From the NCBI GenBank assembly GCA_047967505.1, contig CM106538.1: DNA of 64,000 bases. One strand, given 5' to 3'. Source of the stretch: Dipteris shenzhenensis. Its lineage: Eukaryota. This document shows, in pieces, positions 1,251 through 24,061 of the stretch (position 1 is its first letter; each line of letters opens with the position of its first letter). The position numbers and the translations under genes are program-made. The notes beneath the pieces were generated by a model that had not been told where the DNA came from, ran no database searches, and saw only the letters and a program-made list of their open reading frames with translations.

Positions 1251-1944
1251 CACAACAAGACAAAGCACCTACAGACGTGCACACAGACGCGTTTATTGAA
1301 CTAAAAAAAAACTTATGGGCGCATCTATTTGCACATCTAGAGACCCGCATCTAACGATGCATCTATATAGCAGACAGACACGCATATAGACACGTAAATA
1401 GATACTCTGCTATAAATTTTAAAAAATAGACAGATGCATCGTGAAACGCGTGTATAGACGCATTTATAAACGGTCTTATAGACGTGCAAATAGACGCTCC
1501 TCGAACAAACAGACGCGTATATAGACGCATTTATAGATGGTTTGATAGACGCACTACATAATATTTTTTAAATTTACAGAATGCTGTGTATGTTGTGTAT
1601 GCTATGTAGTTACAGGAATCCCATTTCCACATTGTGTAATTCAATTCTTACAGCCAACCACATTTTAATTAGCACTCTTGCAAGCATGTCTATAGCCGAC
1701 AATTACAATTGCATATAAAACATTACAACTCCAAAACGTTTAGTTCACAAGGCATTAATTGATAGAACATTGCACAAGAAAATTGAAAGCTCAAAAAGTG
1801 CTTGTATGTACATATAGCACGAAGCTAAGCCACGTCCTATGGCTTCAAGTACCAAAAATAAGAGGAGTGTATATACAAGAGGCACGAATCCAAGCCTGTG
1901 GCTTTAAGTACAAAAAAGAGTAGCTAGCACTACTTCTACGACTA

Positions 1945-3580
1945 ATCTAAGTTCTCCACATCCTCGCTCCCTTCTATGCTCCCTTCTGCGCTCCCTTCTC
2001 TGCCTCCTTCCTCGTCTTCTTCCTCGTCTTCTTGTGCAGGGGCCTGTAAACAAGGGACAACATATATCAATGTATGAAAAATCAAATCTTTACTTATAAT
2101 ATTGACATTATTTAATTACTTTCAAATACCTCTCAGGGGGATCACTATGTATAAACCCTCTATACCACGTGCGTTCAAGGCCTATTTCTAAAATCCCTTA
2201 TCTGTAATTTTTTCATTAATAAAATGTACCCCTTTTCTATACAAATCTGTAAATTTTTTCCAAAACTATTTTAAATAGTCCCTTATGTATATTTATTTTT
2301 GTAAATTTTAGAAATAAAAAATATCCTTCTGTTGAACTCACGTGATAGAGTTACATATGATGAGTGACCCCCCCGAGAAATACCTCGGGGGACGCTCCAG
2401 TAGCCCGGATATACTGCTCCTTAGTAATCAACCCGTCATTATAAAAGTGCTTCCATGTATCTCCTCTGCAATGGTGGCAGTGGTAGGCTGTCTCGACAAG
2501 AGTAGGGTATCTGCCCACGATAGCAAGCTACAAGATGACACAATTTACGGAGGGGTTAGTACAAAGAAACAACCTCCTAATAAACTACATAAACAATATA
2601 ATTTGAGATCGATACTTACAAATTGGGCCTCCCATGATTCAACACCCCCTGCTCCACAATGCACGCTTCCATATTGCTCCATTTGGATCCTTCGTGCCTC
2701 CACGTGCTGCATACTGGGTTCCTCCCTTGCTAACTTCATTGCTTTCTTCCACTCATGCTTGTGAGTGGTGTGGGGCGGGCCCCTTGGTGGTTGACCTCCC
2801 TGGAGCCTAGCAAGCTTCGCTAGTGCCTGCCTCTTAAAAGCGAAGATCTTTTATTGCCAAGTATCGTAACAATCTTTGACTTGGCCCATTTATCTATGAA
2901 CTAAAGATTGGGGGGGTTAGGATACCTAGAGTGAACAGCAGCGAGGGTCTCATCAGCCAATCTCTTTGGCTAGTCTTTGTAGTGGATAAAGCAATCTCTG
3001 TAATTGTTAGCAATTACAGAGTGCATGAAGGCCATGATGTCCTTCCCCCATGCATCCATCAAGATGCCTCCTGTTTGAGTGATGTCATAGAAGATCGTAC
3101 CATCACCCCGAGGCACGTCTAAATCATATGAATCATCCTGGTCCCCACCATACCCCTCCCAAAGCACTGTGCCATGCATCCCCCACTACTCTCCCTGCTA
3201 CTACGCCTGCTACTGTATCGTGTCGAGCTAGTACGCTCGCCACTCGTAGCTAGAGACTGCACGGGACTACATGGACCACTCATAGCTAGAGAACCGAGTC
3301 TTGACTACACAGGAGTACGCCGATGGCTCTGTGAGACAAAAGGACCTCTTGACGGCATGGGGGAAGGGGCATAAGATGGCATGGGGGAAGGGGCTCGGCT
3401 GTGTAGCCGGCTGGGCTGTGCTGACTCCTCTGGGTTAATCTCAGCTGATGTGGGTTTGGGGTGGTTTGGAGTCTATAGTGCCGACTCCTGGGGGGTGTTT
3501 AGAGTACCCGTCATGTAGCCGTATAACTCCCCAGGACTGGGAGGGTGCCCTAAAAGGTTATATAACTCCCGAAAGATGGT
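1945..3580 (-). pseudogene. Family B ORF2 (TnpA-position gene), degenerate
   Basis: DGTIFYDITQTGGILMDAWGKDIMAFM and HCGAGGVESWEAQF match 44621-46045 and family A ORF2; frameshifts, stops and a MITE insertion; ends approximate. Confidence 0.7.
2132..2377 (+). mobile_element. 246-bp MITE, CTC...GAG termini, 8-bp TSD (copy 1)
   Basis: Ends CTCAGGGGGATCACT / AGTGACCCCCCCGAG; TSD AAATACCT at 2124-2131 and 2378-2385; empty site visible in the paralog near 45855-45872. Confidence 0.92.
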
Positions 3581-4308
3581 CTCTCGAAGATCAAGTGAGC
3601 TTGAAGAGCTTTCTGGAAATGAACTGGAAAAAAGAAAAAAAGAAAATTACTGATGAGTTGAGAAGAGAAAAAGAAGAGAAAAAGAGAGAGAAAAATTACC
3701 ACAAAAAGAGAGGGAAAGAGAGGATAAAAGAGAGAAGGAATGAGAGGCAAATATAGGAAAAGAGAGAAGAAAAGAGAGGCAAATCCTTTTCTTGGAAGTG
3801 AAAGTGGAAAGGGAAAGGGAAAGGGAAGAGGAAAGAGAAAGGAAAGGAAAGGGAAGGGAAGAGAAGAGAAGGGAAGGGAAGGGAAGAGAAGGAAAGGGAA
3901 GGGAAGGGTCTAAAAGTGTCGGAGCATGTCTATAGACGCATCTGAGAAGTGCGTCTATTTTTACGTATAATAGCACATCTATAGACGTGGCTATCTATTT
4001 TTGAAAATAGAGTAGATGCGTCTATAGACACACCTGTAGACGTGATTTTAGACGCGCTTCGATAGACGAACTATTCTAAAAAGTTGAAAAGGACATGTGC
4101 CCGACACAAAAGCGTAACACTGATACCAAAATCATTCGTTTCTTGGATATGACAAAGGACGAATCCAAAGAGAGCAACTTTCAAAGAAGATCAACCGTAA
4201 AGAGACTTACCTTGGATAGAGGTATGGAAGCTTCTTGTCCTTCTTCAAAGTTGCTTCTCTTCCTTGTTCACCCTCTTCTCCTATGTGCTTGGAGATGATT
4301 GTGTAAGC

Positions 4309-4554
4309 CTCGGGTAGGTCACTATGTATAAACCCTCTATATCACGTGCGTTCAAGGCCTATTTTTAAAATCCCTTATTTGTAAATTTTTCATCAATAAA
4401 ATGTACCCCTTTTCTATACAAATCTATAATTTTTTTCCAAAACTATTTTAAATAGTCCCTTATGTATATATATTTCTGTAAATTTTAGAAATAAAAAATA
4501 TCCTTCTGTTGAACTCACGTGATAGGGTTACATATGATGAGTGACCCCCCCGAG
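4309..4554 (+). mobile_element. 246-bp MITE (copy 2)
   Basis: Near-identical to copy 1; TSD GTGTAAGC at 4301-4308 and 4555-4562. Confidence 0.92.
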
Positions 4555-4702
4555 GTGTAAGCCTGGAAGTAAGTGTGGGTGCCTGGAGATAAGTGTCAGA
4601 CTGTCGATCTGTTAATAGCAAAGCAAGCAAGCCACGTGAAGCTTATGTGAAGAAAAGCAAAGCAAGCATGCTAAAAGAAGATTCCGTATCCACCATCGCG
4701 AA

Positions 4703-6512
4703 ATGTGGTTGGAGAAAAAAATCAAATGTATGTGTGATCGATGTCGAGGAAACATGTATCGTGCACGCAGGATTACACTCAATCACATCTCAAAGTATGG
4801 AGAATGGGATGCGACCACGAACATGGTAAGTGTTAAAGAGTTAAGGTTGATTGAGATACCTATGTGTGTTCATATGTTTGAGTTATGATCCCATTTTAAT
4901 TTGATACAGGATGCAGTGCCACACCCGCATATGTTGTCCTATGCTCGTCGTGAGGAGGTGAAGCATCGGCGATATGAGGTGGGATCTTCAAGAGGGACTG
5001 TTACGGATGCATGGAGTGATGGTGATAGTAGCCCTCCGCCATTACCTCATGAAGCCATGGAGGAGGAGGTGTTTGATGATATGGTGCGGGATTTATATGT
5101 CCATCAATCTGAAGGGAGGGATGATAGCATGGAGCAGGACGATCTTTTTACCGCAGCATCGACTCCACTGTTTGAGGGGTGCACATTCTCTGTCCTACGT
5201 GCCTCCCTTCAGTTACTAAACTTGCAAACCATCTATGGATGGAGCAATGCAAGTTTGAATGCATTACTCAAGTAAGCTTTAAAGTCTATTTTGCAAACAT
5301 GGTGAATTATGCTAGTGGGTCAATTACTCGAATGCTTTTCCTCATTTATGGTCTTCACGTGCAAGCTATTATGTAAAATGCTTCCAAGGGAGAATAAATT
5401 ACCGACCTCAAGAGATATGGCAAGGCGACATGTGACCTCTCTTGGAGGATTAGATTACAAGTGCATCCATGCATGCATCAACGATTGCGTTTTGTTTCAT
5501 GGACTACATAAGGATGCAAAAGAGTGTCCTACTTGTGGAGAGGCAAGATATAGAGCAGATCTCAAAACTTTGGACGTGCCTCGTAAGGTTCTGCGACATT
5601 TTCCCATAATCCCTCGCATCCAACATATGTTCAAGTGCAAATCCATTGCAGAGCTCATGTCATGGCATTCCTCCCATCGATCAACCGATGGCAAGTGGAG
5701 AACTCCTGCAGACACTCCTGTGTGGAAGCATATTGAAGACACATGGCCAAGCTTCAAGGAAGAACCTAGGATCTTGGGACTTGGATTGGGTATGGACAGT
5801 GTGAACCCATTTGGTCTCAAAAGCACCTCTTACAGTGTATGGCCAGTGATATTGGTGAATTATAATCTTCCACCCTCTATGGCTATTAAGAAAGGACATG
5901 TTATGTTGTTCCTTCTAATTCCAGGGAAACATAAAGTCAAAAATCCTGATGTTTATTTGGAGCCTTTGATTGATGAGCTAGAGATACTTTGGAGAGGTAT
6001 CGAGGTGCATGATGTGAGCAGGCCTCCCTCATCACGAGACTTCAACTGCAAAGTAGTCTTGATGTGGATGATGCATGACTTCCTAGGCTATGGCGAGTGT
6101 TCAGGTAAGCATTGCACTTTTAATTATGAGTAGGCAACCGATGTGGCACCTTGAACCCACCTTCAACTCTTAATTGCATCTATTGTTCAAGTCTCACTAC
6201 ATCGGGTTACCATGCATGTCCTATTTGTGGTCCTTCACTAGTTGCCTCACGGGCAGACGCATTGAATAAGGTCATCTATGAGAATCACCATCGATTTCTC
6301 CCACCTGATCATCCTAGATATGTTGCCCCTTGGAATGAAGTCCTCCCACAATCACTCACTACGGGAGATTGGATGAGAATTTGGGATGGTTCCACGACTC
6401 CTCCACCACTTGGCATGAGCCGGTAAGGGTTTGTAACTATTGTGTGCTATATTGGCTGGAAATAAAGATTGCCCGCTAACACCAGCTTTTGTTTATATAC
6501 TCCATCTTTTAT
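4703..6512 (+). pseudogene. Family B TnpD transposase, 5' part
   Basis: KCMCDRC...H N-terminal motif; IHACINDCVLF, LGMDSVNPF and WMMHDFLGY of the Transposase_21 region; GT-AG introns; cut at ...SIFY by the CACTA insertion. Confidence 0.88.
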
Positions 6513-7124
6513 CACTACAAGGCATAGGCCCTTTTCCGACGAAAATACCGATGCTTTTTACATTTTTTTTTTTTCACCGGCGCAAACGTCGTTATAAAAG
6601 TCGCTAAAAGCATCGGAAAAGAACCGTCGCTATATAGCAACACTACAAATCGTTGCTATATAGCGACACTGGTAAACGTCGCTATATAGCAATGATTAAT
6701 AGAAGTAAAAAAAAAAGTGTTAGTGGGGCCTAACAAGGCCATAGCAAGCCCTGTTTTGCCCTTTTTTTTAATTACAAAATTTCCCTTGCGAAAAGGGTGA
6801 TACAAAATTGCTCAAATGAAATGATCGAGCAACAAAAGGATATACATGTCGAACATATACAACATTGTTTGTTACAAAATTACCCTTTCGAAAAGGGTGA
6901 TACAAAATTGCTCAAACGAGTGGATATACAAAATGACATACATGGCGAAGTATATGCAAACTGCTACTACTACTACTACTACTACTACATATTCGAATCG
7001 TCCTCGTCGTCCTCGTCTTGTTGCCCTGATCCTTGGTCCTCTTGAGCTATGCCTTCTCCCTGATCCTCGTCTTGTTGGCCTGTGATCCTTGGCCCTACTG
7101 ATCGCTCGCCTCTGGTGATGGGAT

Positions 7125-9265
7125 GCGCTTATGCTTATACATGAGCATAAGAACATGAGCATGAAAGAGGGGAAAGAGGGTGGAAAAGAGGAGAAGAGAG
7201 AAGAAGAGGGAACGGAAAGAGAGATTGGAAAGGGGGAAAGAGGGAAAGAAAGAGAGAAGAAGAGGGAAAGTAAAGAGGGAAAAAGAGACATATGCTCATG
7301 CATGAGCATATGTCTCCTTCTCTTATGCTCATGCATACGCATAAGCATGAGCATATGTCTCCTTCTCTTATGCTTATGCTTATGCATAAGCATAAGCATA
7401 AGAGAAGGAGACATATGCTCATGCTTATGCGTATGCATGAGCCTCGCATGAGCATAAGAGAATGAGCATGAAAGAGGGAAAAGAGGGGGAAAAAGAGAGG
7501 AAGAGAGACGAAGAGGGAAAGTAAAGAGGGAAAAAGAGACATATGCTCATGCTTATGCATGAGCATATGTCTCCTTCTCTTATGCTCATGCGTAAGAATA
7601 AGCATGAGCATATGTCTCCTTCTCTTATGCTTATGCATAACAGGAGAGAAGAAGAGGGAACAGAAAGAGAGATTGGAAAGGGGGAAAGAGGGAAAGAAAG
7701 GGAGAAGAAGAGGGAAAGTAAAGAGGGAAAAAGAGACATATGCTCATGCTTATCCATGAGCATATGTCTACTTCTCTTATGCTCATGCATAAGCATAAGC
7801 ATGAGCATATGTCTCCTTCTTTTATGCTTATGCTTATGCATATGCATAAGAGGAGTCTTATGCATAAGCATAAGCATAAGCATAAGAGAATGAGACATAT
7901 GCTCATGCTTATGCTCATGCTTATGCTTATGCTTATGCATGAGCATAAGAACATGAGCATGAAAGAGGGAAAAGAGGGTGAAAAAGAGGAGAAGAGAGAA
8001 GAAGAGGGAACGGAAAGAGAGATTGGAAAGGGGGAAAGAGGGAAAGAAAGAGAGAAGAAGAGGGAAAGTAAAGAGGGAAAAAGAGACATATGCTCATGCA
8101 TGAGCATATGTCTCCTTCTCTTATGCTCATGCATAAGCATAAGCATGAGCATATGTCTCCTTCTCTTATGCTTATGCATAAGCATAAGCATAAGCATTAT
8201 GTTCATGCTTATGCATATACATGAGCATAAGAGAATGAGCATGAAAGAGGGAAAAGAGGGGGAAAAAGAGAGGAAGAGAGAAGAAGAGGGAAAGTAAAGA
8301 GGGAAAAAGAGACATATGCTCATGCATGAGCATATGTCTCCTTCTCTTATGCTCATGCATAAGCATAAGCATGAGCATATGTCTCCTTCTCTTATGCTTA
8401 TGCTTATGCTTATGCATAAGCATAAGCATAAGCATTATGCTCATGCTTATGCGTATGCATGAGCATAAGAGAATGAGCATGAAAGAGGGAAAAGAGGGGG
8501 AAAAAGAGAGGAAGAGAGAAGAAGAGGGAAAGTAAAGAGGTAAAAAGAGACATATGCTCATGCTTATGCATGAGCATATGTCTCCTTCTCTTATGCTCAT
8601 GCATAAGCACAAGCATGAGCATATGTCTCCTTTTCTTATGCTTATGCTTATGCTTATGCATAAGACTCTTCTTATGCATATGCATAAGCATATGCTCATG
8701 CTTATGCTTATGCATGAGCATAAGAGCATGAGCATGAAAGAGGGAAAAGAGGGGGGGAAAGAGGAGAAGAGAGAAGAAGAGGGAAAGGAAAGAGAGATTG
8801 GAAAAGGGGAAAGAGGGAAAGAAAGAGAGAAGAAGAGGGAAAGGAAAGAGGGAAAAAGAGACATATGCTCATGCTTATGCATGAGCATATGTCTCCTTCT
8901 CTTATGCTCATGCATAAGCATAAGCATGAGCATATATCGCCTTCTCTTATGCTTATGCTTATGCTTATGCATAAGAGGAGTCTTATGCATAAGCATAAGC
9001 ATATGCTCATGCTTATGCATGAGCATAAGAGCATGAGCATGAAAGAGAAAAAAGAGCAAGGGAAAGAGAAGAAGAAGAAGAGAGAAGAAGAGGGAAAGGA
9101 AAGAGAGATTGGAAAAGGGGAAAAAGGGAAAGAAAGAGAGAAGAAGAGGAAAAGGAAAGAGGGAAAAAGAGACATATGCTCATGCTTATGCATGAGCATA
9201 TGTCTCCTTCTTTTATGCTCATGCTTATGCTTATGCTTATGCATGAGCATAAGAGCATGAGCATG
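7125..9265. repeat. GCTTAT/ATAAGC palindromic hexamer satellite with purine-rich spacers
   Basis: Recurrent GCTTATGCTTATGCATAAGCATAAGC blocks alternating with GA-rich blocks in higher-order units. Confidence 0.95.
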
Positions 9266-9795
9266 AAAGAGGGAAAAGAGGGGGGGAAAGAGGAGAAGAA
9301 GAGGGAAACGAAAGAGGAAAAAAGAGGGGGAAAGAGATTGAAAGATTGAACGAGAAGGAGAAGGAGAAGGAGAGGAGGGAATGAAGAGGAGAGAAGAGGG
9401 AAAGAAGAGGGAAGAGAGGGAAAGAGAGGGTTCCTATGCCCATCACTGCAGCTAGTGCTTAAGGCGCTAGCTGCAGGCCAATACAAATAAAAAAAATAAC
9501 AAATGGAAAAAAGAGGAAGCACTTACCTGGAATAGTACGTCCCGCTCGATGTTTTGTGGACTGGCCCTACAAAAGAGAGGAGTCTTCTTTCTTTCTTGAA
9601 ATCTCGTTTTTTGTTTCAATCCTTTGAAATCAAGCATGAAAACTAGTACGCAGCTTTAGCAATATAAGGAGAAGCACTCACAAAATGAAATCTCACAAAC
9701 ACTACTACACACGCATCCTATTGCGACGTTTACGTATCGACGATTAGCGCCCGCTTAGCGTTAATCGTCGGTATAAAAATCGGGTGTCGTAAATC

Positions 9796-9940
9796 GTCGC
9801 TATATAGCGACTTTTAATAAGCGTCGCTATATAGCGACGTTAGTACAAGTCGCTATATAGCGACTTTTAAAGGTCGCTATATAGCGACCTTAGTAAAAGT
9901 CGCTATATAACGACTTTTACTAAGGTCGCTATATAGCGAC
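9796..9940. repeat. Left subterminal array of the 16-bp palindrome GTCGCTATATAGCGAC
   Basis: Five perfect copies and one imperfect copy. Confidence 0.95.
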
Positions 9941-10140
9941 ACTGAGACTATATTATAGCGACGTTTTACAGAGAGGTTTTTTTTTTTTTTTTAGCCTTAA
10001 AATTTATTTTCTTCCAATGACAAAATTTTTTAAATTTTCATACATGTTTCAGCTCATAGAGAAATAAAAAATGAGAGCATGTACATCAAGCCTTTGAAGC
10101 TCATATATTCATGTCCAAGTTGGAGATGAGAAAAATCAAA

Positions 10141-13100
10141 TTAAATAAGAGCATTTACATCAACTGTTTCATCTTGAGCCAAGTCTAAGGCGCCAAGCAA
10201 GTCTATCTCCAACTCTATACCGAGTTGATCTCCTATATCATCATCGTACTCTAGCATCGTACGTTCACCTAAAAGTATTTGATCATCTTCTTCAATTAAG
10301 CTTAAGTGTGGTGATTGATCTTGACGATTGTTGTCTTCCTCGTCAATATCGTGATCTCCATCCTCCTCCCGTGCGATGTCATTATGTGCATCTTCCTCTT
10401 GCCTCATATGGTGATCTATATCTTCTTCGCTAGATTCATCAATTGGATCCGGATTTGGTAGTGGCATCTCCATATCCACATCTCGATCTTCAAAAATCTG
10501 CTTACTTCGTGGTGCAACTTGGATCACGTACCACCATCTTGGATCAGAACGATCCGGATGAAAAACCACCTATATTGAAGATGAAAAATCACGTGCCAAA
10601 TGTTGTCAATTATATATATATCAATGGACTTAAAAAACGAAAGCTTCGACTAATTAAATCATTAGTATGCACCTGCTCACAGTGCTCGGGAAGAACAAAA
10701 GTATCACTTTCATCGGTCCAATGTTTGGTGGAGTCTATTGCAAAGAGACCGCTACCATCTTTTCTCACAGTTGCATGGGGACCGTTGTAAGTAGTTCTAA
10801 ACCATTTTACATCAAGAATGAAAATAGTAAATCGTCTGAAATCAATTTCATAGATGTCGCGTATGGTTCCACAATAATCCAACTGTGAGGAGAGAAGATT
10901 GGTATCCGAAGCACTTGCTCGGCTATCTTGTGTGAAGTTAGCCATGACTCCACAATCATACGTGACTCTCTTTGAATCGATGCGTTCTATGCGAAAATGT
11001 CGTCCATATGACCATAATGCACTGTACTTTTTGTACTGTAAAAGAGCATCATTAAAACAATGAAGATGCACCTATTTTATAGCATATATTGCCACAAATA
11101 ATTACTTAATTACATCAAGAGATAAGAAACTTACATGCACCATACATCCAGATGATAACTCCCGCTCGCGCTCGTTTATTGTCTCTCCATCACGTTCGGC
11201 TTTACGTATAGCTAGTTGTAGCCAATCAAGTGACATGTGAGTAGGGAGAAGAGCCAGATCTCGTGGATATGGTTGTGATCGCCTGTACATTACTCTGAAT
11301 CTCGTCCTTGCATTTATTCTTTCTGCTTTGGCCACTTCATATCTCTCAATCCACTTCTGCATCTCAGGGCTATTGAGGATACAAAACTTATTGAATTTCT
11401 CCATTTGCTCTTCGCTCATCTTTCTTTCAATCCCTTTTCCTTGGGGGACCTCGCCAATGATGCGATCATCATCCTTGTTGTGCCAAGCTTGCGGCATATT
11501 AGGATCCGTGGATGCAAGAAACTCTGTGATATATACTAATGACTCTTGCACAAGCCATCCCTCTGCCATGCTTGCTTCTGGTCTTGCTCTTTGTCTTACA
11601 AACCCCTTTAAAGTTTTCATAAACCGCTCGAGAAAAAACATCCATCGATTATGAACGGTACCTGCTATAGCCACCTCATCAACTATGTGCACAAGCAAGT
11701 GGACTTGAGTTGTCATAATGCTTGAGGGAAAGTGCTTCTCAAGCAAGCATACGGCTTCGATGGATTCCACCCTAGCCTTCTCGATGCTCGATATAGAGAT
11801 CTCTTTTTGAGATATCCACCTATTTCACATGTCCATGCATATGTAAGATATTTGAGATATCCACCTATTTCACATGTCCATGAAGAAAATAGATAATGCG
11901 AATTGATAGTAAGCATACCTCACAATACCACAGATCTTGAATATAGCATTTCTAACATCTTCTTGTAAGCACCCTTTTATTGTAATTGGAAGGATGAACT
12001 ATCAAAGCAACAATGAAATCATGTCAACAATATAACATAATAATAATTACGCTAATGCATCACTATTATCGGTACACTAATTCTACTTAGAATACCTGTA
12101 AGACCTTGTGCCAATCATGGGACTTGAGGCCACTAAGCTTATTGTCCTTTGAAAATGCTCCTTTCAAGCAACGCATGTACCCTGTCGGTGTTTGAAAAGA
12201 GGCAATGTCTGCCTTGATCGCTGCCTCCTCCCTCGTAGAGAGGATCCACGTTGCTTTCGGGAGGACAACTTTTCCTGAAGCATGCACTTGGGGCCACAAA
12301 CGAGACATCCTATTCATAGCACGCAAGTCTTCTCGCACTCCTCTCGAGTCCTTGGAACCAACCAAGTGTGCCCAAATGGTAGCCCCCACATTCTTAAAGA
12401 TATGCATGGGATCCAAGAGATGATTCATTTGTAACTGACCCCAATAAGGAAGCTCGTGAAAGATCGATAGCCTCTTCATACCAGGAGGAGGTTCCTCTCC
12501 ATTCTCCCTCCAAGCTTGAATCCAATCACTTGCTTTTAAATATGATGGTGGTGGATCAAGCTGACCTCCACGTGCGAGATGGTCGAGCGGAAGGTATCGA
12601 GCATGACCTTCATAAACATTTTTCCTCATGTGTTTGGAGTAGCGTGCAAGCGATTTCAGAGCGGGTCCACAAACAGGACAAGCATGGTACCCACTTGTAG
12701 CAAGCCCTGCACGTGTGCATGAATATGTTAGTACAAGACATGCGTGCAAAAGAGAGTAAAAAAAGCATAATCCCTCATTGTACATGTAAAGACATAACCA
12801 CGTACCTGCGCACTCTCCATATCCTGGGTAGTCATGCATGGTCCACATCAAGATACCCCTGACGGAAATATCATTGGTATGCCTAGGAGCTCTGGAAATA
12901 TCAAAGACCTGCACTCCTCTCCATAATATCTGTAAGTCCTCTATCAAAGGTGCCATGTACACGTCCATGTTTCTTGCCTTGTACTTTCCTGGCACAAGTA
13001 GTGCAAGCATGAGGTGTCCCTTTTTTATTGTTAGCCATGGTGGGATATTGTAATTCACCACGACTATGGGCCATGTCGACCAAGATGTCGAGCATAACCG

Positions 13101-14204
13101 GAAAGGATTCACGCCGTCCATGGCTAGCCCAAGATGTAAGTTGCGTGGCTCTCTCGCAAAGTCCGGCCACTGATTATCTATGTGCTTCCAAGCCACACAA
13201 TCTGCGGGAATCCTCAATGTGTGATCAGTGGACCGATGAGATGCATGCCATGTCATCAACTCCGCTATGGATTTGCATCGAAACATGTGTTGTATTCTTG
13301 CAATGATGGGAAAGTGTCTTAAGACCTTTACCGGTATCCTCTCACCCTGCAAGTCATCTCTATATCGTTGTTCCCCACACTTTGGACAACTAGCCAAATC
13401 TCCATGCTCACGATGAAAGAGAATACAATCATTACGGCAAGCATGGATGGTATCATAATCCATACCCACCATTGTTAGCATCTTTTTCGCTTCATCTCTT
13501 GATGCGGGCATGGTATTTGGTGCATGCAACATCTTTTGGAGCAACCTATGACAAAGACACTATCCAAATGATGATTCTCAAAACAAACAATATCCAAATA
13601 ATGAGTCAATCAAATTAATGCAAGGGCTAACCTCATTAAGGCCGAGACACTTGTATCCGACCACCCATACTGTACTTGTAGATTCAAGATTGAGAGACAA
13701 GCACGTAGTTTAGACATCCTGGCACCCTCGTACAATTGTGTTGATTGCAACTCTCGCATTTTCACCTCAGACTCTGACATCACGTGTACGTGGGATGTAG
13801 TGCCCCTAAAAATGGAATCCATCATGTCGACCATACCCTCGTCGTCATCTGGGAGACTATAGTCTTGTTGAAAGTGAGAAGGTATATGTGTACCCTCGTC
13901 ACCCTCGTCATCCTGTCATAAGCTCATTCGTGTAAATAGAAGATCTTCTAATTCCGGGTATACAATAAGATTGCGAACTTAAATAGCTTTGACTTACCGA
14001 TGATCCATCAACATGTGCAACACCAACGGGGGGTACTGGTTCCGGCTCCTCCCCATACATCCGCAAGTGGCGCATGATAATACGACGTTGATGTCGTACT
14101 TCTCGCTTGCAATGAGTGCAATGACAATATAACCTCTCCGTAAGCCACTTCGTGCTCCCGGGCGTTGGCGCATCATCGGATGAGCTTCCACTCGTCCCTT
14201 CCAT
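10141..14204 (-). CDS. tnpD: CACTA TnpD-type transposase, about 1131 aa, 8 exons (14204-13998, 13912-13632, 13545-12806, 12706-12096, 11998-11919, 11819-11135, 11035-10673, 10569-10141)
   Basis: GT-AG introns give one open frame of 3396 nt; CHCTHC...H, LAMDGVNPF, WTMHDYPGY, LDPMHIFKN, GLKSHDWH, HNRWMFFLERFM, FVLPEHCEQV; acidic C-terminal tail. Confidence 0.9.
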
Positions 14205-14439
14205 CTACACTTATAAAACCAAAACATAAGCATGAAGAGGAGATGTACACAATTATGAGCATAGCATGTTTAATTTGAGCTTCTCTTGAGGCTATATAAA
14301 AAGAATGACATCGCTATATAGTAAGGATTGAAACAAAAAATCCTATATAGTAAGGCTGTGTAGTAAGAGGAGATATTGACAATTATAGGCATAGCATGTT
14401 TGAGTCACAAGAGGCCTCATTAAAAAACAAACAGTAAGC

Positions 14440-14575
14440 GTCGCTATATAGCGACATTTTCAATTAAAAACGTCGCTATATAGCGACGATTTTAATTGAA
14501 AGCGTCGCTATATAGCGACGTTTTCAATTAAAAACGTCGCTATATAGCGACGAATAAGCGTCGCTATATAGCGAC
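14440..14575. promoter_or_regulatory. Internal palindrome array between the two divergent genes (putative bidirectional promoter region)
   Basis: Five perfect GTCGCTATATAGCGAC copies about 240 bp upstream of the tnpD ATG and upstream of the putative ORF2 leader exons; regulatory role is inferred. Confidence 0.6.
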
Positions 14576-15439
14576 GCTGTGGGTTAAAACCCGAAACGCC
14601 GAAACCCGCGGCGTTTTGCTCAAAGCTTTCCTAATCTCTAAACTAAGCTCTCCAAAATCTCCTCCCACCTATTTTCACTGACCTCCCATCTATTCCAAGC
14701 AACCTCCTACCCTATTTCCCACTCCTCACCCTCCTCCTACCTCTTGTGCACCCTCTCTCTCCTTTTTCCCTCTTTGGTTTCCAGAAAGAAAGTTCTTCAA
14801 AAGGTGAGTTTTTTTCAACAATGTAGGTTGTTTGTTTGTTAGCTTTGGTTTTGTGAGTGTTTCTACTTGTATTGCTAAAGTTTTAAACTAGTTTTCATGC
14901 TTGATTAGAAAGGATTCAAACAAAAAACGAAATTTCAAGAAAGAAAGAAAGAAACTCACCTCTTCTTTATGTATTTCTCTTCCTTCTCTTCTCCTCAATC
15001 TCCTCCTTTCCTTGTCTCCTCAATCTTCTCTTTCCTTGTCTCCTTTCAAGAAGTTGCTTTTGTGATCTCCTCTTTCCACTAACATCTTATTTGAAAAAAT
15101 GGGTTGTTTTCTCTCTTTTGTAGGGCCAGTCCACTACACCGAGCGGGACATAGTCTCTCTTTTGTGGGCCCAGTCCACTACACCGAGCGGGACATACTTT
15201 TACAGGTAAGTGCTTCCTCTTCTTTCCATTTAAGCTTTTTGTTATTTGCATTTGCCTGCAGCTAGCGCCTTAAGCGCTAGCTGCAGTGATGGGCGTAGGA
15301 ACCCTCTCTTCCCCCTTCTCTTTTTCTCATTTTCCCCCTTCTCTTTTTTCCCTCTTCTCTTATTCTCTCTTTCCCCCTCTCTCTTTTCCCTTCTCTCTTT
15401 CCTTTCCCCCTTATTCTCTATTTCCGCATCCCTCTTATT

Positions 15440-18320
15440 CTCTTATGCTTATGCTTCTCTCATTCCGCATAAGCTCCTCCTCTATTTCCGCATGAGCATA
15501 AGCATGAGCTTATGCTTATGCTTATGCATAAGCATAAGCATAAGCTCATGCTTATGCTCATTCATGAGCATGAGCTTATGCGTAAGTTTCCGCAAGAGCT
15601 TATGCGGAAATAGAGAATGAGAGAAGCATATGCTTCTCTCATTCTCTTTTTCCGCATAAGCTCCTTCTCTCATTCCGCATAAGCTCCTTCTCTTTTTCCG
15701 CATGAGCATAAGCATGAGCTTATGCTTATGCTTATGCTTATGCTTACGCTTATGCATAAGCATAAGCATAAGCTCATGCTTATGCTCATTCATCCGCAAG
15801 AGCTTATGCGTAAGTTTCCGCAAGAGCTTATGCGTAAGTTTCCGCAAGAGCTTATCCGCAAGTTTCCGCAAGTGCTCCTTCTCTTTTTCCGCATGAGCAT
15901 AAGCATGAGCTTATGCTTATGCTTATGCATAAGCATAAGCATAAGCTCATGCTTATGCTCATTCATCCGCAAGAGCTTATGCGTAAGTTTCCGCAAGAGC
16001 TTATGCGTAAGTTTCCGCAAGAGCTTATCCGCAAGTTTCCGCAAGAGCTTATCCGCAAGTTTCCGCAAGTGCTCCTTCTCTTTTTCCGCATAAGCTCCTT
16101 CTCTTTTCCCGCATGAGCATAAGCATGAGCTTATGCTTATGCTTATGCATAAGCATAAGCATAAGCTCATGCTTATGCTCATTCTTCCGCATGAGCTTAT
16201 GCGTAAGTTTCCGCAAGAGCTTATGCGGAAATAGAGAATGAGAGAAGCATACGCTTCTCTCATTCTCTTTTTCCGCATAAGCTCCTTCTCTCATTCCGCA
16301 TAAGCTCCTTCTCTATTTCCGCATGAGCATAAGCATGAGCTTATGCTTATGCTCATTCATCCGCAAGAGCTTATGCGTAAGTTTCCGCAAGAGCTTATCC
16401 GCAAGTTTCCGCAAGTGCTCCTTCTCTTTTTCCGCATAAGCTCCCTCTCTTTTTCCGCATGAGCATAAGCATGAGCTTATGCTTATGCTTATGCATAAGC
16501 TCATGCTTATGCTCATTCTTCCGCATGAGCTTATGCGTAAGTTTCCGCAAGAGCTTATGCGGAAATAGAGAATGAGAGAAGCATATGCTTCTCTCATTCT
16601 CTTTTTCCGCATAAGCTCCTTCTCTCATTCCGCATAAGCTCCTTCTCTATTTCCGCATGAGCATAAGCATGAGCTTATGCTTATGCTTATGCTTATGCAT
16701 AAGCATAAGCATAAGCTCATGCTTATGCTCATGCTTCCGCAAGAGCTTATGCATAAGTTTCCGCAAGAGCTTATCCGCAAGTTTCCGCAAGTGCTCCTTC
16801 TCTTTTTCCGCATAAGCTCCCTCTCTTTTTCCGCATGAGCATAAGCATGAGCTTATGCTTATGCTTATGCATAAGCATAAGCATAAGCTCATGCTTATGC
16901 TCATTCTTCCGCATGAGCTTATGCGTAAGTTTCCGCAAGAGCTTATGCGGAAATAGAGAATGAGAGAAGCATATGCTTCTCTCATTCTCTTTTTCCGCAT
17001 AAGCTCCTTCTCTCATTCCGCATAAGCTCCTTCTCTATTTCCGCATGAGCATAAGCTCATGCTTATGCTCATGCGGAAATAGAGAAGGAGCTTATGCGGA
17101 ATGAGAGAAGGAGCTTGTCATGAGCTTATGCGCAAGTTTCCGCAAGAGCTTATGCGCAAGTTTCCTCAAGTGCTCTTTCTCTTTTTCCGCATAAGCTCCT
17201 TCTCTCATTCCGCATAAGCTCCTTCGCAAGTTTCCGCATGAGCATAAGCATGAGCTTATGCATGAGCTTATGCTTATGCTTATGCATAAGCATAAGCATA
17301 AGCTCATGCTTATGCTCATTCATGCTTATGCTTATGCTTATGCTTATGCTCATGCTTATGCTCCTTCTCTATTTCCGCATGAGCATAAGCATGAGTTTCC
17401 GCAAGTTTCCGCAAGCATAAGCATAAGCTATCCGCAAGTTTCCGCAAGAGCTTATCCGCAAGTTTCCGCAAGTGCTCCTTCTCTCTTTCCGCATAAGCTC
17501 CTTCTCTTTTTCCGCATGAGCATAAGCATGAGCTTATGCTTATGCTTATGCATGAGCATAAGCATAAGCTCATGCTTATGCTCATTCATGTCCATGAGCT
17601 TATGCGTAAGTTTCCGCAAGAGCTTATGCGGAAATAGAGAATGAGAGAAGCATATGCTTCTCTCATTCTCTTTTTCCGCATAAGCTCCTTCTCTTATTCC
17701 GCATGCAAGTTTCCGCAAGTTTCCGCATGAGCTCCTTCTCTTATTCCGCATAAGCTCCTTCTCTTTTTCCGCATAAGCTCCTTCTCTATTTCCGCATGAG
17801 CATAAGCATGAGCTTATGCTTATTCATGAGCATGAGCTTATGCGGAAGTTTCCGCAGGAGCTTATGCGGAAATAGAGAATGAGAGAAGCATATGCGGATC
17901 TCATTCTCTTTTTCCGCATAAGCTCTTTCTCTTTCTCTTTTGCGTGAGCATATGCGGAAATAGAGAATGAGAGAAGCTTATGCTTCTCTCCTCCTCTATT
18001 TTCGCATATGCGGAAACATGAGCATAAGCTCATGCTCACCCATGAGCATAAGCATAAGCTCATGCGGAAAAAGAGAAGGAGCTTATGCGGAAATAGAGAA
18101 TGAGAGATGCTTCTCTCCTTCTCTTTTTCTGCATAAGCTCCTTCTCTTTTTCCGCATGAGCATAAGCATGCGGAAACTCATCGTTCTCATGCTTATGCTC
18201 ATGCATGTGCATGAGCTTATGCATAAGTTTCCGCATAAGCTCATGCACATGCGTGAGCTTATGCGGAAATAGAGAATGAGAGAAGCATAAGCTCATTCTC
18301 TATTTCTGCATAAGCTCATT
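15440..18320. repeat. GCTTAT/ATAAGC/TTCCGCA satellite in the putative ORF2 5'UTR intron
   Basis: About 2.9 kb of inverted hexamer tracts between donor CAG|GTAAG (15205) and acceptor TTAG (18597). Confidence 0.93.
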
Positions 18321-18599
18321 CTCTATTTCCCACTCTATTTCCCCCTTCTCTCATTTCCCCCTTCTCTCATTCTCTATTTTCCCTCATCTCTTTCCCTTTC
18401 TCTCATTCTCTATTTCCTCGTTCTCATTCTTTTCTTTCCTTTACATCTTCTTTCCCTCTTATCTTTCCCTCTTCTTTCCCTCTTTCCTTTCCCTCTTCTT
18501 TCCTTTCCCTCTTCTTTCTTCTTGCCTATGCCTATGCCTATGAGAATGCTCATGTTTGTTTATTTGTTTTCTGTTTTCGTGTTTGTGTCTATGTTAGAC

Positions 18600-20175
18600 A
18601 TGGGATCACGTCGCTCATCGGACGAGTACGGACAGCCTCGCAGGAGGAGAGCTCACGATCTATATGCTCCAGAGGACTTTGATTCCTCTCAGGCGACTAC
18701 CCCGAGGACTACCCCTGGTCCGACTCCTCTCGGTCCTAGCACTGTGACTACCCCTGGTCCGACCCCTCTTCCACGTAGCACTGCGACTACCCCTCAGGGG
18801 ACTCCTTTGCTAGCCGCGCATGGCTTTGTTGGGACTCCCGACGAGTTTGTAGCGCAGATGAGCGATGAGGAGGCAGCGAGATTCTTCTCTCTGCTCTCTC
18901 AGAGGACCTCCGCAATTCCTTCCCCTACACCGACGGGTGGACGTACAGCCCAGCCATCCCCTCGCGCCCCTTCGACCGCGGGATCATCACCTGCGCATGC
19001 CTCCCGCAAGGGAAGGAAGAGTAGGATGGGCGGCTCATGTTGTGCTGACTCAGGAGATGTAGACGAGTCAGCACACTCACGCTCCTTTAGGTCTCCACTT
19101 GGTCCGGAGACACAGTATCAGTCAGGTCCCTTTCCCTCTCCTACTCCCACAGCTACTCCTCGATCCGGAAGCGGTCGCGCAGCTTCCACTCCTTCAGACT
19201 CTGCTACCGTCAGTCCCCCTTACTCATCAGGGGATCTCTCCTATCAAATCACATCTGCCGGAGAGATAATAGAAGACAAAAAGGGCAAAGCAGTGATGGC
19301 CGCCATGAGGCAGTTGATGAGTCATCACTTCAAGAGCGGCATAAATATCGATTGGCGGTATCAAGATGGCCAAAAGAAGCAGGCGGTGATCGATGAGTTA
19401 AAACTCAGATTTCCTAATCCGCCAAATGTGGAGTTTAATAACAGTTATATGCTCGAGCGCATGGGTTTGGTCCTAAAGCATCGCAGATCAACCATGCGTA
19501 CTTCCATTACAAAGGGGTTGTCTAAACCCAGCTGGGCAGACAAAGCTGATTGGAAGTACTTCAAGAAGCAACATAGGGACCATCCTGAAATGTTCGAGGG
19601 TCAGAGGAGGGCTGCGAAGAGACGGCTGGATGTCGTAGGTACTTCGCACTTTGGTGCAGGTGGACGGTATGCATTCGAGGCAACCGTGGTAAGTTTACTT
19701 CTTTCCATTTAATGTATTGTTCTATTTGTTTTACTTACATATTACATGCACTTTAGCTAACTCTAACTCTCGTAAATTGGATCCACAGCAAGCTGCGATG
19801 GGTCGTCTTCCTACGGATGCAGAGACGCGGCGCGCATTTCGGATAGGAACCAAGCCGTGGTTCATTGAGCAAGAGGCAATGGGAGCGACAGTCGATTGGG
19901 CTGAGGTGGCTACTCACACGGTATAAGTTTACTCCTGCTTGTAATCTCACTTTTTAATTTAAGTTCCAATCTAATTTTCGATTTATATGGTTCACTCTCA
20001 GGGTCAAAGCTCAAGCGTCCCATCATCAGAGACGAGCGATCAACAGGGGCAAGGATTGGACGCAGGTGCCGATGACGAAGGAGAAGACGGAGGTGTCGGG
20101 GACGAGGGAGAAGATGCAGGTGCCGAGGACCAGGGAACAGCCCAACAAGACGATTCGGATTCGGATTCGGATTAG
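18600..20175 (+). CDS. Family A ORF2 (TnpA-position accessory protein), about 464 aa; exons 18600-19688, 19789-19920, 20002-20175
   Basis: Open frame across GT-AG introns; S/P/T-rich N-terminus, core with RFPNPPN and HFGAGG shared with family B ORF2, acidic tail. Confidence 0.78.
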
Positions 20176-20452
20176 TAGTGGTAGTAGCATTTTTCATATC
20201 CGCTCGTTAGAGCCATTTTGTATCGCCCTTTCACAGGGTAATTTTGTTTCAAACACAGTTGTATATGTATATGCATTTCTTCCTCATCGTTCACAAGAAC
20301 AATTTTGTATCACCCTGCAAGCAAGGGAAATTTTGTTATAAAAAACTTTCTTTTGTAATTACAAAAAAAAAAAAATGGTTAGTGGGGCTAAACAGGGCTT
20401 CCTTTTGGCCCTGTTTAGCCCCACTAACCATTTTTTTTACCTTCTGTTAATC

Positions 20453-20621
20453 GTCGCTATATAGCGACGTTTACCAGTGTCGCTATATAGCGACGATTAA
20501 CAGAGTCGCTATATAGCGACGTTTACATCGTCGCTATATAGCGACGTTTATATCGTCGCTATATAGCGACGTTTACATCGTCGCTATATAGCGACGATTA
20601 ACAGCGTCGCTATATAGCGAC
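20453..20621. repeat. Right subterminal array of GTCGCTATATAGCGAC
   Basis: Seven perfect copies. Confidence 0.95.
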
Positions 20622-21526
20622 GGTTTATAGCGACGCTCCTTTTCCGACGATTTTAACGACTTTTATAGCGACCTTTGCGCCCGTGAAAAAAAAAATTTTA
20701 ATGTAAAAAGCGTCGGTATTTCCGTCGGAAAATGGCCTATGCCTTGTAGTGAAAAAACCTACCTACATTGTTCAAAGAGACTCACCTCTTCTAAAACTTC
20801 CTTTCAAGAAACCAAAGAGGGAGAAGGGTGGAGGGGAAGCACAAGAGCTAGGAGAGGGGTGAGTAGTGGTGAGGAGTGAAGAATAGAGTGGGAGGTCGTC
20901 GAAAATAGGTGGGAGAAGAGATTGCTTTGCTTACAATAGAGATTAGAGAGTGCTAAAGAAAGTGTCGCACGTCGCGACGGGTTTAGGTTTTAACCCACAA
21001 TGTCACTATATAGCGACGCTTTTACGTCACTATATAACGACACTAAAGAGTCGCTATATAGCGACCTTTAACACTAAACCCTAAACCCTAAACCCAAACC
21101 CTAAAAGTCGCTATATAGCAACCTTTAACCCTAAAAGTCGCTATATGGCGACACTTAACCCTAAAAGTAGCTATATAGCGACCTTTTACCCTAAGTGTCG
21201 CTATATAGTGACACTTATACCTTAAAAGTGTCAATTCAAGGCACTTGATCGAAGAAAAGAGGGAAGGAGCTCATGGGTAGCTATTTTTTGGATCTTAATG
21301 GATTTCCTTGCATTTTGTGTTGTGACTTTAGAGGTGTGCAGATGGAAGGGATGAGTGAAAGCTTGTCAGATGATGCACCAATGCTCGGGAGTGCAGAGTG
21401 GCTTACAAAGAGGTTGTATTGTCATTGCACTCATTGCAAGCGAGAAGTATGACATCAACGCCGTATTGTCATGCGCCACTTGCGGATGTATGGGGAGGAG
21501 CCCAAACCAATACCCACCGTTGGTGG

Positions 21527-21570
21527 CTCGGGGGGGTCACTCATCATATGTAAGCCTATCATGTGAGTTC
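21527..21570 (-). mobile_element. Truncated CTC...GAG MITE at a duplication junction
   Basis: CTCGGGGGGGTCACTCATCATATG..., then the sequence switches to a copy of 9281 onward. Confidence 0.8.
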
Positions 21571-23030
21571 GGGGGGAAAGAGGAGAAGAAGAGGGAAACG
21601 AAAGAGGAAAAAAGAGGGGGAAAGAGATTGAAAGATTGAAGGAGAAGGAGAAGGAGAGGAGGGAAAGAAGAGGAGAGAAGAGAGAAAGAAGAGGGAAGAG
21701 AGGGGAAGAGAGGGTTCCTACGCCCATCACTGCAGCTAGCGCTTAAGGCGCTAGCTGCACGCCAATACAAATTAAAAAAATAACAAATGGAAAAAAGAGG
21801 AAGCACTTACCTGGAATAGTACGTCCCGCTCGGTGTTTTGTGGACTGGCCCTACAAAAGAGAGGAGTCTTCTTTCTTTCTTGAAATCTCGTTTTTTGTTT
21901 CAATCCTTTGAAATCAAGCATGAAAACTAGTAATCAAGCATGAAAACTAGTAAGCAGCTTTAGCAATACAAGGAGAAGCACTCACAAAATGAAATCTCAC
22001 AAAAAACCTACCTACATTGTTCAAAGAGACTCACCTCTTCAAAAACTTCCTTTCAAGAAACCAAAGAGGGAGAAGGGTGGAGGGGGAGCACAAGAGTAGG
22101 AGAGGGGTGAGTAGTGGTGAGGAGTGGAGAATAGAGTGGGAGGTCATCGAAAATAGGTAGGAGAAGAGATTGCTTTGCTTACAATAGAGATTAAAGAGTG
22201 CTAAAGAAAGTGTCGCACGTCGCGACGGGTTTCGGTTTTAACCCACAACGTCGCTATATAGCGACGCTTTTACCTCGCTATATAACGACACTAAAGAGTC
22301 GCTATATAGCGACTCTTTAACACTAAACCCTAAACCCTAAACCCAAACCCTAAAAGTCGCTATATAGCAACCTTTAACCCTAAAAGTCGCTATATAGCGA
22401 CACTTAATCCTAAAAGTGGCTATATAGCGACCTTTTACCCTAAGTGTCACTATATAGTAACACTTATACCTTAAAAGTGTCAATTCAAGGCACTTGATCT
22501 AAGAAGAGAGGGAAGGAGCTCATGGGTGGCTCTCGGGGGGGTCACTCATCATATGTAACTCTATCACGTGAGTTCAACAAAAGGATATTGTTTATTTCTA
22601 AAATTTACAGAAATAAATATACATAAGGGACTATTTTAAATAGTTTTGGAAAAAAATTACAGATTTGTATAGAAAAGGAGTACATTTTATTAATGAAAAA
22701 TTTTACAGATAAGGGATTTTAAATATAGGCCTTGAATGCACGTGATATAGAGGGTTTGTACATAGTGAACCCCCTGAGGGGTGGCTATTTTTTGGATCTT
22801 AATGGATTTCCTTGCATTTTGTGTTGTGACTTTAGAGGTGTGCAGATGGAAGGGACGAGTGAAAGCTTGTCAGATGATGCACCAATGCTCGGGAGTGCAG
22901 AGTGGCTTACAAAGAGGTTGTATTGTCATTGCACTCATTGCAAGCGAGAAGTATGACATCAACGCTGTATTGTCATGCGCCACTTGAGGATGTATGGAGA
23001 GGAGCCCAAACCAATACCCACCGTTGGTGG
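21571..23030 (+). repeat. Second copy of a ~1.2 kb tandem duplication inside the outer family A element
   Basis: Matches 9281-9699 plus 20752-21526; lacks the inner CACTA and carries MITE copy 3. Confidence 0.9.
22532..22778 (-). mobile_element. 247-bp MITE (copy 3, inverted)
   Basis: TSD GGGTGGCT at 22524-22531 and 22779-22786; empty site near 21275. Confidence 0.92.
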
Positions 23031-23490
23031 CTCTTTGGTGGTGCACATGGTGATGGATCATCGAATAGTCATTGCTATTTGAGTTTGTGATTAATATTGC
23101 ATGCATACATGACACAAAATCTTGAGACAGGATGAGGAGGGTGGTGTGTGTATACCTTCACACTACCAATGTGGATATGAAGATAGAATCATGTGGATAT
23201 GGAGATGCCACTACCAATGCCGGATCCAATTGATCCAGATGGATTTAGAGAAGAAGATGAAGATCACAATATGAGCGAAGAGGAAGATGTGCATAATGAC
23301 ATCATATGGGAGGAAGATGGAGATCACGATATTGAGGAAGAAGGTGACGATCATCAAGAATCACCCGACTTTATTGAAGAAGATAATCAAGTCTATGGTG
23401 AACGTACGATGATGATATAGGAGATCAACTTAGTATAGAGTTGGAGATAGACTTGTTTGGCACACTAGACTTGGCTCAGGATGAAGCCAA
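22846..23490 (+). pseudogene. Internally deleted family A tnpD (first exons fused to last exon)
   Basis: MEGTS...CHCTHCKREV then a stop; joins to DMEMPLP...DPID, the C-terminal exon of the intact tnpD. Confidence 0.85.
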
Positions 23491-24061
23491 GTCTCAAACG
23501 TAGACATGAATATATGAGCTTCAAACTTGATGTACATGCTCTTCTACTTTTATTCTTTCAAAGGATCAAACATGTACATGCTCTCATATTTTTATTCTCT
23601 ATGAGATCAAACATGTATGAAAATTTAAAAAAATTTGTCATTGGAAAAGGCCTATATGAGTAAAAAACATCTCTGGAAAATGTCACTATAAAATAGTATC
23701 TCATTGTCGCTATATAGCAAAGTGCCTAATACAATGAGGCACGAGTTGCCTCATCAGCAAGAGCACCAAGGGATGGCGGACACCCAGACAGTACGACACA
23801 GGGCATGGACATGAGTGGGGTGAGGGGGTATAAAGAGAGAGAGTGTTAGAGAGTGGTGAGGGGTGGAGTTAGAGAATATAGTGACACTTAAAAGTCGCTA
23901 TATAGCAACTTTTATAATCGTTGCTATATAGCGACGTTTGCTTAACGTCGCTATATAGCGACGCGTTACGAGACATGCTTTTCATACCGACGATTAGCGC
24001 CCCGTGCGTGCTAAACATCGGTACATAAACGTCGCAATAGGATCTGTGTGTAGTAGTGTAT

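Follow-up and report, generated by a model that had tools for sequence, protein, structure and literature searches.

Boundaries of the element and its palindrome arrays

The window analysed here, 64,000 nucleotides of contig CM106538.1 from the fern Dipteris shenzhenensis (assembly GCA_047967505.1), contains a DNA transposon of 11,052 bp at positions 9700-20751, which is called E1. The two genes of the element, tnpD (minus strand) and ORF2 (plus strand), diverge from a central region of about 1 kb, and the same short palindrome is clustered at the left end, in the centre and at the right end of E1. E1 begins with CACTACTACACACG at 9700 and finishes with CCTTGTAGTG at 20751. The left terminus (L-type, 9700..9713, plus strand) is also found at the end of a second element, E2, at 24058. 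The right terminus (R-type, 20738..20751, plus strand) reads ...TATGCCTTGTAGTG, and only CACTAC is common to both real ends. The pair of ends reads CACTAC...GTAGTG. The element is bordered by AAA on either side (9697..9699 and 20752..20754). An unfilled paralogous site (21973-22032), located in the second centre copy of E2 (21571-22531), reads ..ATCTCACAAAAAACCTACC.. and has six A, three fewer than the filled site with its three plus six, so that AAA represents the 3-bp duplication made by E1.

Exact matches to the palindrome GTCGCTATATAGCGAC number 22 in the window, for 0.00 expected from shuffled sequences. Five are located at 9796-9940, five at 14440-14575 and seven at 20453-20621, in agreement with the counts of five, five and seven given by the initial annotation for the left end, the centre and the right end. 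The other five exact copies, outside E1 (21050, 22250, 22298, 22386 and 23947), belong to E2. When up to three mismatches are allowed, 40 matches are found (0.10 expected), all of them in E1 or E2, from 6626 to 23962. The left subterminal array (9796..9940) is made of six copies, five perfect and one with a single mismatch, with a period of 24-27 bp, and the right one (20453..20634) of eight copies, seven perfect and one degenerate, with a period of 25-26 bp. The central array (14440..14575) is built of five perfect copies, with a period that changes from 32 bp to 24 bp. The tnpD ATG is 236 bp away from the start of this array, and the donor of the predicted first exon of ORF2 lies 228 bp beyond its end.

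E1 appears to be young, because 17 of its 19 palindrome matches (three mismatches at most) are perfect and its CpG observed/expected ratio is 0.86, compared to 0.38-0.69 in E2 and 0.58 in the window. The features that define the superfamily are found together: CACTA...TAGTG termini, a 3-bp target-site duplication, subterminal arrays of a 10-20-bp motif and a DDE transposase of the TnpD/Tnp2 type. E1 is probably a young, structurally intact CACTA (En/Spm-superfamily) DNA transposon, and probably an autonomous one. The initial annotation of 9700..20751 as an intact CACTA element is thereby supported by the termini, by the AAA duplication as compared with the empty site, and by the open genes.

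Two genes in divergent orientation

The tnpD-type transposase gene (10141..14204, minus strand) is open for 1131 codons, from the ATG at 14204 to the stop at 10141, and is divided into eight exons (14204-13998, 13912-13632, 13545-12806, 12706-12096, 11998-11919, 11819-11135, 11035-10673 and 10569-10141). Its open reading frame pieces match the Pfam families Transposase_21 (PF02992; 2.2e-53) and DUF4218 (3e-26), together with a weak match to Transpos_assoc (0.011). Splicing was followed with contigs of two public runs, X1 and X2, aligned to 9500-21000. The RNA nature of these runs is guessed, and both cover the element weakly, with shares of 0.14 and 0.05. Six stretches of 85-103 nt, located exactly between the reading frame pieces of tnpD, are omitted from X2 contigs, and their ends read CT..AC, which is GT..AG on the minus strand. 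The six joints were adjusted to canonical GT..AG sites; the shorter sides of these joints measure 30, 27, 42, 51, 32 and 154 nt. The seventh intron (13546-13631, 86 nt) is predicted only.

The coding region of ORF2 (18600..20175, plus strand) has 464 codons in three exons (18600-19688, 19789-19920 and 20002-20175), and the intron 19921-20001 is joined in contigs of both X1 and X2. One X1 contig, aligned from 18596 onwards, has in front of this alignment ten letters with a single match in the window, at 15194-15203 (0.09 expected), where they are followed by AG|GTAAGT. An exon of the 5' untranslated region (5'UTR) that ends at 15205 is spliced over a 3,392-nt intron (15206-18597) to 18598, two bases before the ORF2 ATG. 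This second exon (15124..15205, plus strand, donor GTAAGT at 15206) has kept both its acceptor and its donor in E2. A non-coding first exon is predicted at 14576..14803 on the plus strand, ending at a donor, AAAG|GTGAGT, that is conserved in E1 and in both E2 copies.

In the X1 and X2 contigs, the introns of tnpD are GT..AG on the minus strand and those of ORF2 on the plus strand. The divergence of the two genes, as proposed in the initial annotation, is thus indicated by the strand of the splice sites as well as by the reading frames of 1131 and 464 codons. Both transcription starts must fall between about 14150, the last covered base of tnpD, and 15124. The central array at 14440-14575 falls within this interval.

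The long ORF2 intron contains a block of tandem and inverted repeats of about 2.9 kb (15430..18330), which has a counterpart in E2 at about 7100-9400. Almost no contig of the two runs is found over 15644-18331. One X1 contig (depth 19.6) links 15454 to 18483 with 21 other letters between them; this could mean that the 3-kb block of repeats is missing from some related copies, or else that the alignment went astray in the CT-rich, low-complexity DNA. CT-rich tracts are present in E1 at 15300-15450 and 18330-18520. The second 5'UTR exon is doubled by a 44-bp tandem duplication (15110-15196) and measures 82 nt in E1, compared to 40 nt for its E2 counterpart (21811-21850, minus strand).

The ORF2 protein

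The ORF2 product has an acidic tail and, towards its C-terminus, a conserved helical domain of basic character (19200-19688) with 28 K+R residues for 17 D+E. No family was found in a Pfam scan, even at E up to 10, neither PF03004 nor PF03017 being matched. A word-indexed search with a 352-aa ORF2 query and a metagenome scan with the single domain each gave no relative. An exhaustive profile-free search with the 163-aa domain returned 60 relatives at E up to 0.001, including 28 at E up to 1e-10, the best with 42% identity. Pfam domains are absent from 24 of the 26 relatives that were scanned. Seven of 20 looked-up relative clusters are named: five belong to Adiantum nelumboides, one has a member from Pteridium aquilinum and one is a ‘hypothetical protein’. 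The relatives named by organism are all from ferns, in line with a fern host.

The domain was confidently modelled with AlphaFold2 from 30 sequences (predicted local distance difference test, pLDDT, 88.5; predicted template modelling score, pTM, 0.76) as a small hairpin followed by six helices. A Foldseek comparison of this model with the PDB gave no match at E up to 0.001, the best reaching 0.52, and the VIA fold comparison gave a best Z of 5.8, which is below its noise level of about Z 8. Likenesses below noise to five BEN-domain entries (Z 4.4-5.2) and to the Zeste DNA-binding domain (Z 5.0) are considered as leads only, and so is a cluster in the Atlas, listed at a score of 0.91, in which 32% of the members carry PF03004. 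Judged by its position and conservation, ORF2 is the accessory gene of E1.

Nesting of E1 in an older relative

Self-comparison of the window indicates that the DNA flanking E1 is the reverse complement of the E1 centre: 9585-9701 matches 14949-14833 at 86%, and 20752-21069 matches 14837-14499 at 72%. Because this is true of both flanks, E1 is located inside an inverted relative, E2, and this nesting accounts for the additional palindromes found beyond 20751. E2 extends from 6513 (CACTACAAGGCATAGG) to 24058 (..TGTGTGTAGTAGTG), has the CACTAC...GTAGTG termini of E1 and is bordered by a TAT/TAT duplication. Its first part (6513..9699, minus strand) holds the R-type end, three degenerate palindromes (6626-6693) and the repeat block. 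Its second part (20752..24058, minus strand) holds a duplicated centre with arrays at 21002-21212 and 22250-22461, remnants of tnpD, and the L-type end with its array (23706-23962). Based on tblastn and self-comparison, E2 has lost the whole ORF2 coding region and all of tnpD except its first exon and its 3' end. E2 can be read as an older, non-autonomous deletion derivative, inverted relative to E1, and the insertion point of E1 is the first intron of E2. E2 itself splits the plus-strand tnpD of a third element, E0, and the order of the nest reads E0 > E2 > E1.

The arrays of E2 are more degenerate. The R-type end has three copies, none perfect, with 10-bp spacers; the L-type end has four, one of them perfect, with 10-11-bp spacers; and the two centre arrays have seven copies each, of which one and three are perfect. 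Each centre copy shows seven mismatches in its 112 motif positions, compared to a divergence from E1 of 25-28% in the alignable DNA around it. CpG transitions represent 14 of the 26 motif mismatches in E2, as expected for an older methylated copy. The central spacers of E2 are entirely different from those of E1 (ATTTTCAATTAAAAAC). The block formed by the array, the first exon and its donor is conserved between E1 and E2, in which the last three central copies and the downstream block are kept.

The spacers of the E2 central arrays (21070-21229 and 22319-22478) contain telomere-like CCCTAAA repeats and the telobox-like AACCCTAAAA. A tandem duplication of about 1.4 kb, visible as 92-98% identity of 21275-23033 with 9281-9699 plus 20752-21529, spans tnpD exon 1, the central array and the 5'UTR exons of E2; E1 is present in one of the copies only.

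A second family with the same layout

Using the E1 proteins as tblastn queries, tnpD-like and ORF2-like coding regions in head-to-head orientation were found twice more in the window, in E0 and in a further element, E3. The left part of E0 (1251..6512, plus strand) contains end motifs, an ORF2-like coding region on the minus strand (2378-3666), whose frame is broken between 2850 and 2970, and a central motif cluster at 3926-4047. Its tnpD (plus strand) runs from about 4668, with matches at 5159-6423 and 24053-25804, and resumes at 24059-25805 after the interruption by E2. E3 (40282..46666, minus strand) is bordered by a TTT duplication, confirmed against an unfilled site in E0, and is hosted by a related copy, E4 (38956-40281 and 46667-47023). 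It carries tnpD on the minus strand, ORF2-like coding on the plus strand and two central motif clusters (43802-43924 and 44377-44522). About 950 bp present in E0 (5951-6512 and 24062-24452) are missing from its tnpD at 42533-42534, and E3 is therefore a defective copy.

These elements constitute one family, B, with 93-96% identity between the tnpD genes of E0 and E3. Its inverted termini, read in E3, are CACAACAA[C/G]ACAAAGCA, and the ends are CACAA...TTGTG. The resemblance to E1 amounts to 54% and 43% in the two longest matches of tnpD and 27-32% in three matches of ORF2. The family-B motif, GCGTCTAWA, is found 16 times in the window for 0.49 expected and is absent from E1 and E2; conversely, no palindrome of the E1/E2 family (family A) was found within family B in the window at up to three mismatches. 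With CpG decay allowed in the count, the density of the motif in E3 is 7.5 per kb at the left end, 14.7 in the centre and 12.5 at the right end, compared to 0-0.6 in the coding regions. In E0, it is 12.5 per kb at the left end and 7.0 in the centre, with 0-1.0 in the coding regions; its right end was not identified. Elsewhere in the window, the density is 0.06-0.23 per kb. In family A as in family B, the motif that marks the ends thus also marks the space between the divergent genes. The layout described in the initial annotation stands, and what it had overlooked is the triple nesting and the recurrence of this layout in other copies and families of the window.

The motif of the centre varies in step with that of the ends, which makes it probable that a single element-encoded binder acts at all three sites. 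Alternatively, the palindrome could be the site of a host factor, its core CTATATAG acting as a two-way TATA-like box for the machinery of the host. On both strands, the core indeed reads TATATA, and the central spacers of E2 contain the telobox-like AACCCTAAA, which we take to be a host promoter motif. The family-B motif has a different core with the same three-site distribution, however, and the terminal arrays face the 3' ends of the genes, where no promoter use is evident. In addition, the subterminal repeats of CACTA elements are known TnpA sites, according to the available part of PMC2613891. We give this host-factor explanation little credence and retain an element-encoded binder.

Related repeats are densely nested in this region, and one could suspect that the layout results from repeats that were collapsed or mis-joined during assembly. 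This can hardly be credited. Three insertions are clean, with 3-bp duplications, and two of them are matched to unfilled paralogous sites; the same gene order is present in the independent copies E0 and E3; and the contigs of the public runs agree with the exon structure.

Other features of the window were also noted. Long CT-/GA-rich tracts (47848-48413 and 3660-3910) flank the 5' regions of the family-B ORF2 genes and resemble the CT-rich tracts of E1. An insert of about 250 bp, similar to a miniature inverted-repeat transposable element, is present in three copies that are 93-94% alike, at 2128-2378 and 4308-4554 in E0 and at 22531-22782 in E2. A 9-bp direct repeat, GTGTAAGCC, borders the copy at 4308 and hints at a Mutator-type origin.

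Possible function of the central array

Starting from what was directly observed, namely the anatomy, the nesting, the open frames, the strand of splicing and the distribution of the motif in two families, we favour, with moderate confidence, a reading in which a single element-encoded protein binds the ends and the centre. A palindrome-binding protein, most likely a dimer of ORF2, would occupy all three clusters of E1. At the ends, the bound protein would serve transposition, and at the centre it would autoregulate or de-silence the divergent promoter region. As both ends of E1 face the 3' ends of genes, an end promoter of the En/Spm type would be unworkable, and any promoter must be internal. 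The central array may then stand in for the 5' subterminal region of En/Spm, which contains both the promoter and TnpA sites. The proposal that an end-binding protein regulates a bidirectional promoter was already made in the initial annotation. It has gained comparative support from E2 and family B, which share the three-site layout, and continues to be an interpretation of the sequence.

The same array could be explained as a functionless relic of a head-to-head fusion between a carrier of tnpD and a carrier of ORF2. The L-type terminus contains a 9-mer, TGTGTAGTA, for which the window has just three matches where 0.26 are expected. Two belong to the L-type ends themselves, in E1 and in E2, and one is internal, at 14357-14365, 75 bp left of the central array. 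The internal match follows two degenerate palindromes and has the orientation of the right end of a unit that would span 9700-14368; it could be the remnant of an inner terminus or a coincidence. The little that the two real ends of E1 have in common also speaks for a fusion. A relic would be expected to drift from the ends, yet the centre agrees with the ends in E1, in E2, where the motif is kept and the spacers are replaced, and in family B, with another motif. Where E1 is aligned with E2, ordinary spacer of E2 stands opposite the 9-mer. Moreover, a present function is compatible with a composite origin. We consider a functionless relic unlikely.

A further possibility is that the central array acts chiefly in transposition, as an internal enhancer that pairs both ends, and not mainly in transcriptional control. 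An internal activation sequence in the operator region is known from phage Mu. E2, devoid of both genes, keeps and even duplicates the central module along with both ends, and the same motif clusters occupy three places in two families. Retention in a single derivative may be due to chance, however, and the centre has no terminus-like CACTA sequence except the weak 9-mer. The position of the array, directly upstream of a conserved first exon and its donor, fits a promoter role, and a primary function as an enhancer seems quite improbable to us.

Several points weigh against the promoter-binding role that we favour. The identity of the binder, the transcription starts and the regulatory effect are all inferred from sequence. 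The X1 and X2 contigs do not reach 14492-14875, and the first ORF2 exon, which falls there, is a prediction. These contigs are 88-99% alike, and other copies or another species are possible sources; one of the tnpD joints rests on a short side of 27 nt. ORF2 would be TnpA-like by position only, as it has no Pfam family and no significant fold match in the PDB. The youth of E1 makes the perfection of its arrays uninformative on selection. In family B, the cluster common to E0 and E3 is located after the exon-1 donor, in the first intron, and E0 has no equivalent of the upstream cluster of E3. Only two families are concerned, all from one nested 64-kb neighbourhood.

The structure of ORF2 is a further such point. 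Six of the seven tnpD introns and the last ORF2 intron are seen joined, but the 19688/19789 junction was not found among the X1 and X2 contigs, and contigs of both runs read through the predicted intron 19689-19788. If retained, this intron would stop the protein at 370 residues. Many database relatives of ORF2 stop at the same ..FVS position and continue with unrelated residues; this divergence fits a conserved intron after ..FVS.

A broader scenario is more tentative, and its chances are in our view well below even. In a CACTA clade that is possibly fern-specific, a Pfam-less accessory protein would read a co-evolving motif at the ends and at an internal bidirectional promoter, license transposition, activate or de-silence both genes and perhaps pair the ends. 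If so, deletion derivatives that keep the central module, such as the gene-less E2, would spread a portable bidirectional promoter that responds to, and is controlled by, the transposon.

Comparison with known systems

E1 combines all defining CACTA features except a recognisable TnpA/TNP1 domain, and the gene organization of En/Spm is not found in it. According to the available sections of PMC2613891, maize En/Spm, Antirrhinum Tam1 and soybean Tgmt* share with E1 the CACTA termini, the 3-bp duplication and the motif arrays at both ends, as well as a transposase of the TnpD/Tnp2 type accompanied by a second, poorly conserved protein. The same source describes TnpA of En/Spm as a protein that attaches to the subterminal repeats and exerts both positive and negative control over the element that encodes it. 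Maize En/Spm is described there and in the accessible part of PMC13547354 as a single co-directional, alternatively spliced unit. As far as these sources go, En/Spm, Tam1 and Tgmt* have one unit starting in the 5' subterminal region, whereas E1 has two divergent genes and ends that face their 3' ends. Unlike these elements, E1 also has a third motif array mid-element, and its ORF2 matches neither of the two Pfam families mentioned above. The initial annotation was therefore right to contrast the architecture with that of maize.

In the elements SPM2, 5, 6 and 9 of Arabidopsis, as in E1, TnpD and the accessory protein are produced from two non-overlapping genes (PMC13547354, 10.1101/2024.04.02.587720). 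These genes are arranged head-to-tail, in contrast with the head-to-head pair of E1, and the portions of these reports at hand mention no internal motif cluster. In the same portions, the Arabidopsis catalogue consists only of single alternatively spliced genes and head-to-tail pairs, and the pairs were deemed unexpected by its authors.

Our literature search found no head-to-head CACTA element and no internal array of an end motif; Repbase, Dfam and TREP lay outside this search, and the layout may be catalogued there. In other superfamilies, transposons with terminal inverted repeats such as MuDR of maize and PIF/Harbinger combine a transposase with a second gene in non-tandem orientations, the genes of MuDR converging from promoters in its long terminal inverted repeats. 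To our knowledge, none of them has a central copy of the end-binding sites. In phage Mu, a cluster of sites located between divergent promoters is bound by the end-binding protein, which couples regulation with transposition. Its transposase is unrelated, and the analogy is one of logic only.

The E1 system also recalls the ‘KAKUSEI’ anti-silencing system of Arabidopsis. In the parts of bioRxiv 10.64898/2026.08.24.746577 available to us, TnpA(Spm1) binds dense, family-specific motif clusters, demethylates only there and activates the genes of the element. The Spm motifs co-diversify with their families, and clusters, binding and hypomethylation are reported at the termini only. Dense family-specific clusters are likewise found in E1, which is known from its sequence and in which a cluster is also located between the genes.

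This description provides a first anatomy of probably autonomous CACTA elements in a fern genome and adds an accessory-protein family outside the Pfam models. According to work on maize and, recently, on Arabidopsis, TnpA-type proteins act where their motifs cluster, and the elements studied there have both the clusters and the promoter at their termini. With its internal promoter region and third cluster, E1 would provide a natural experiment in which end binding for transposition is separated from promoter binding for self-activation or anti-silencing. It makes testable whether the self-activation of TnpA-type proteins, as described for maize and Arabidopsis, depends on the location of the motif cluster.

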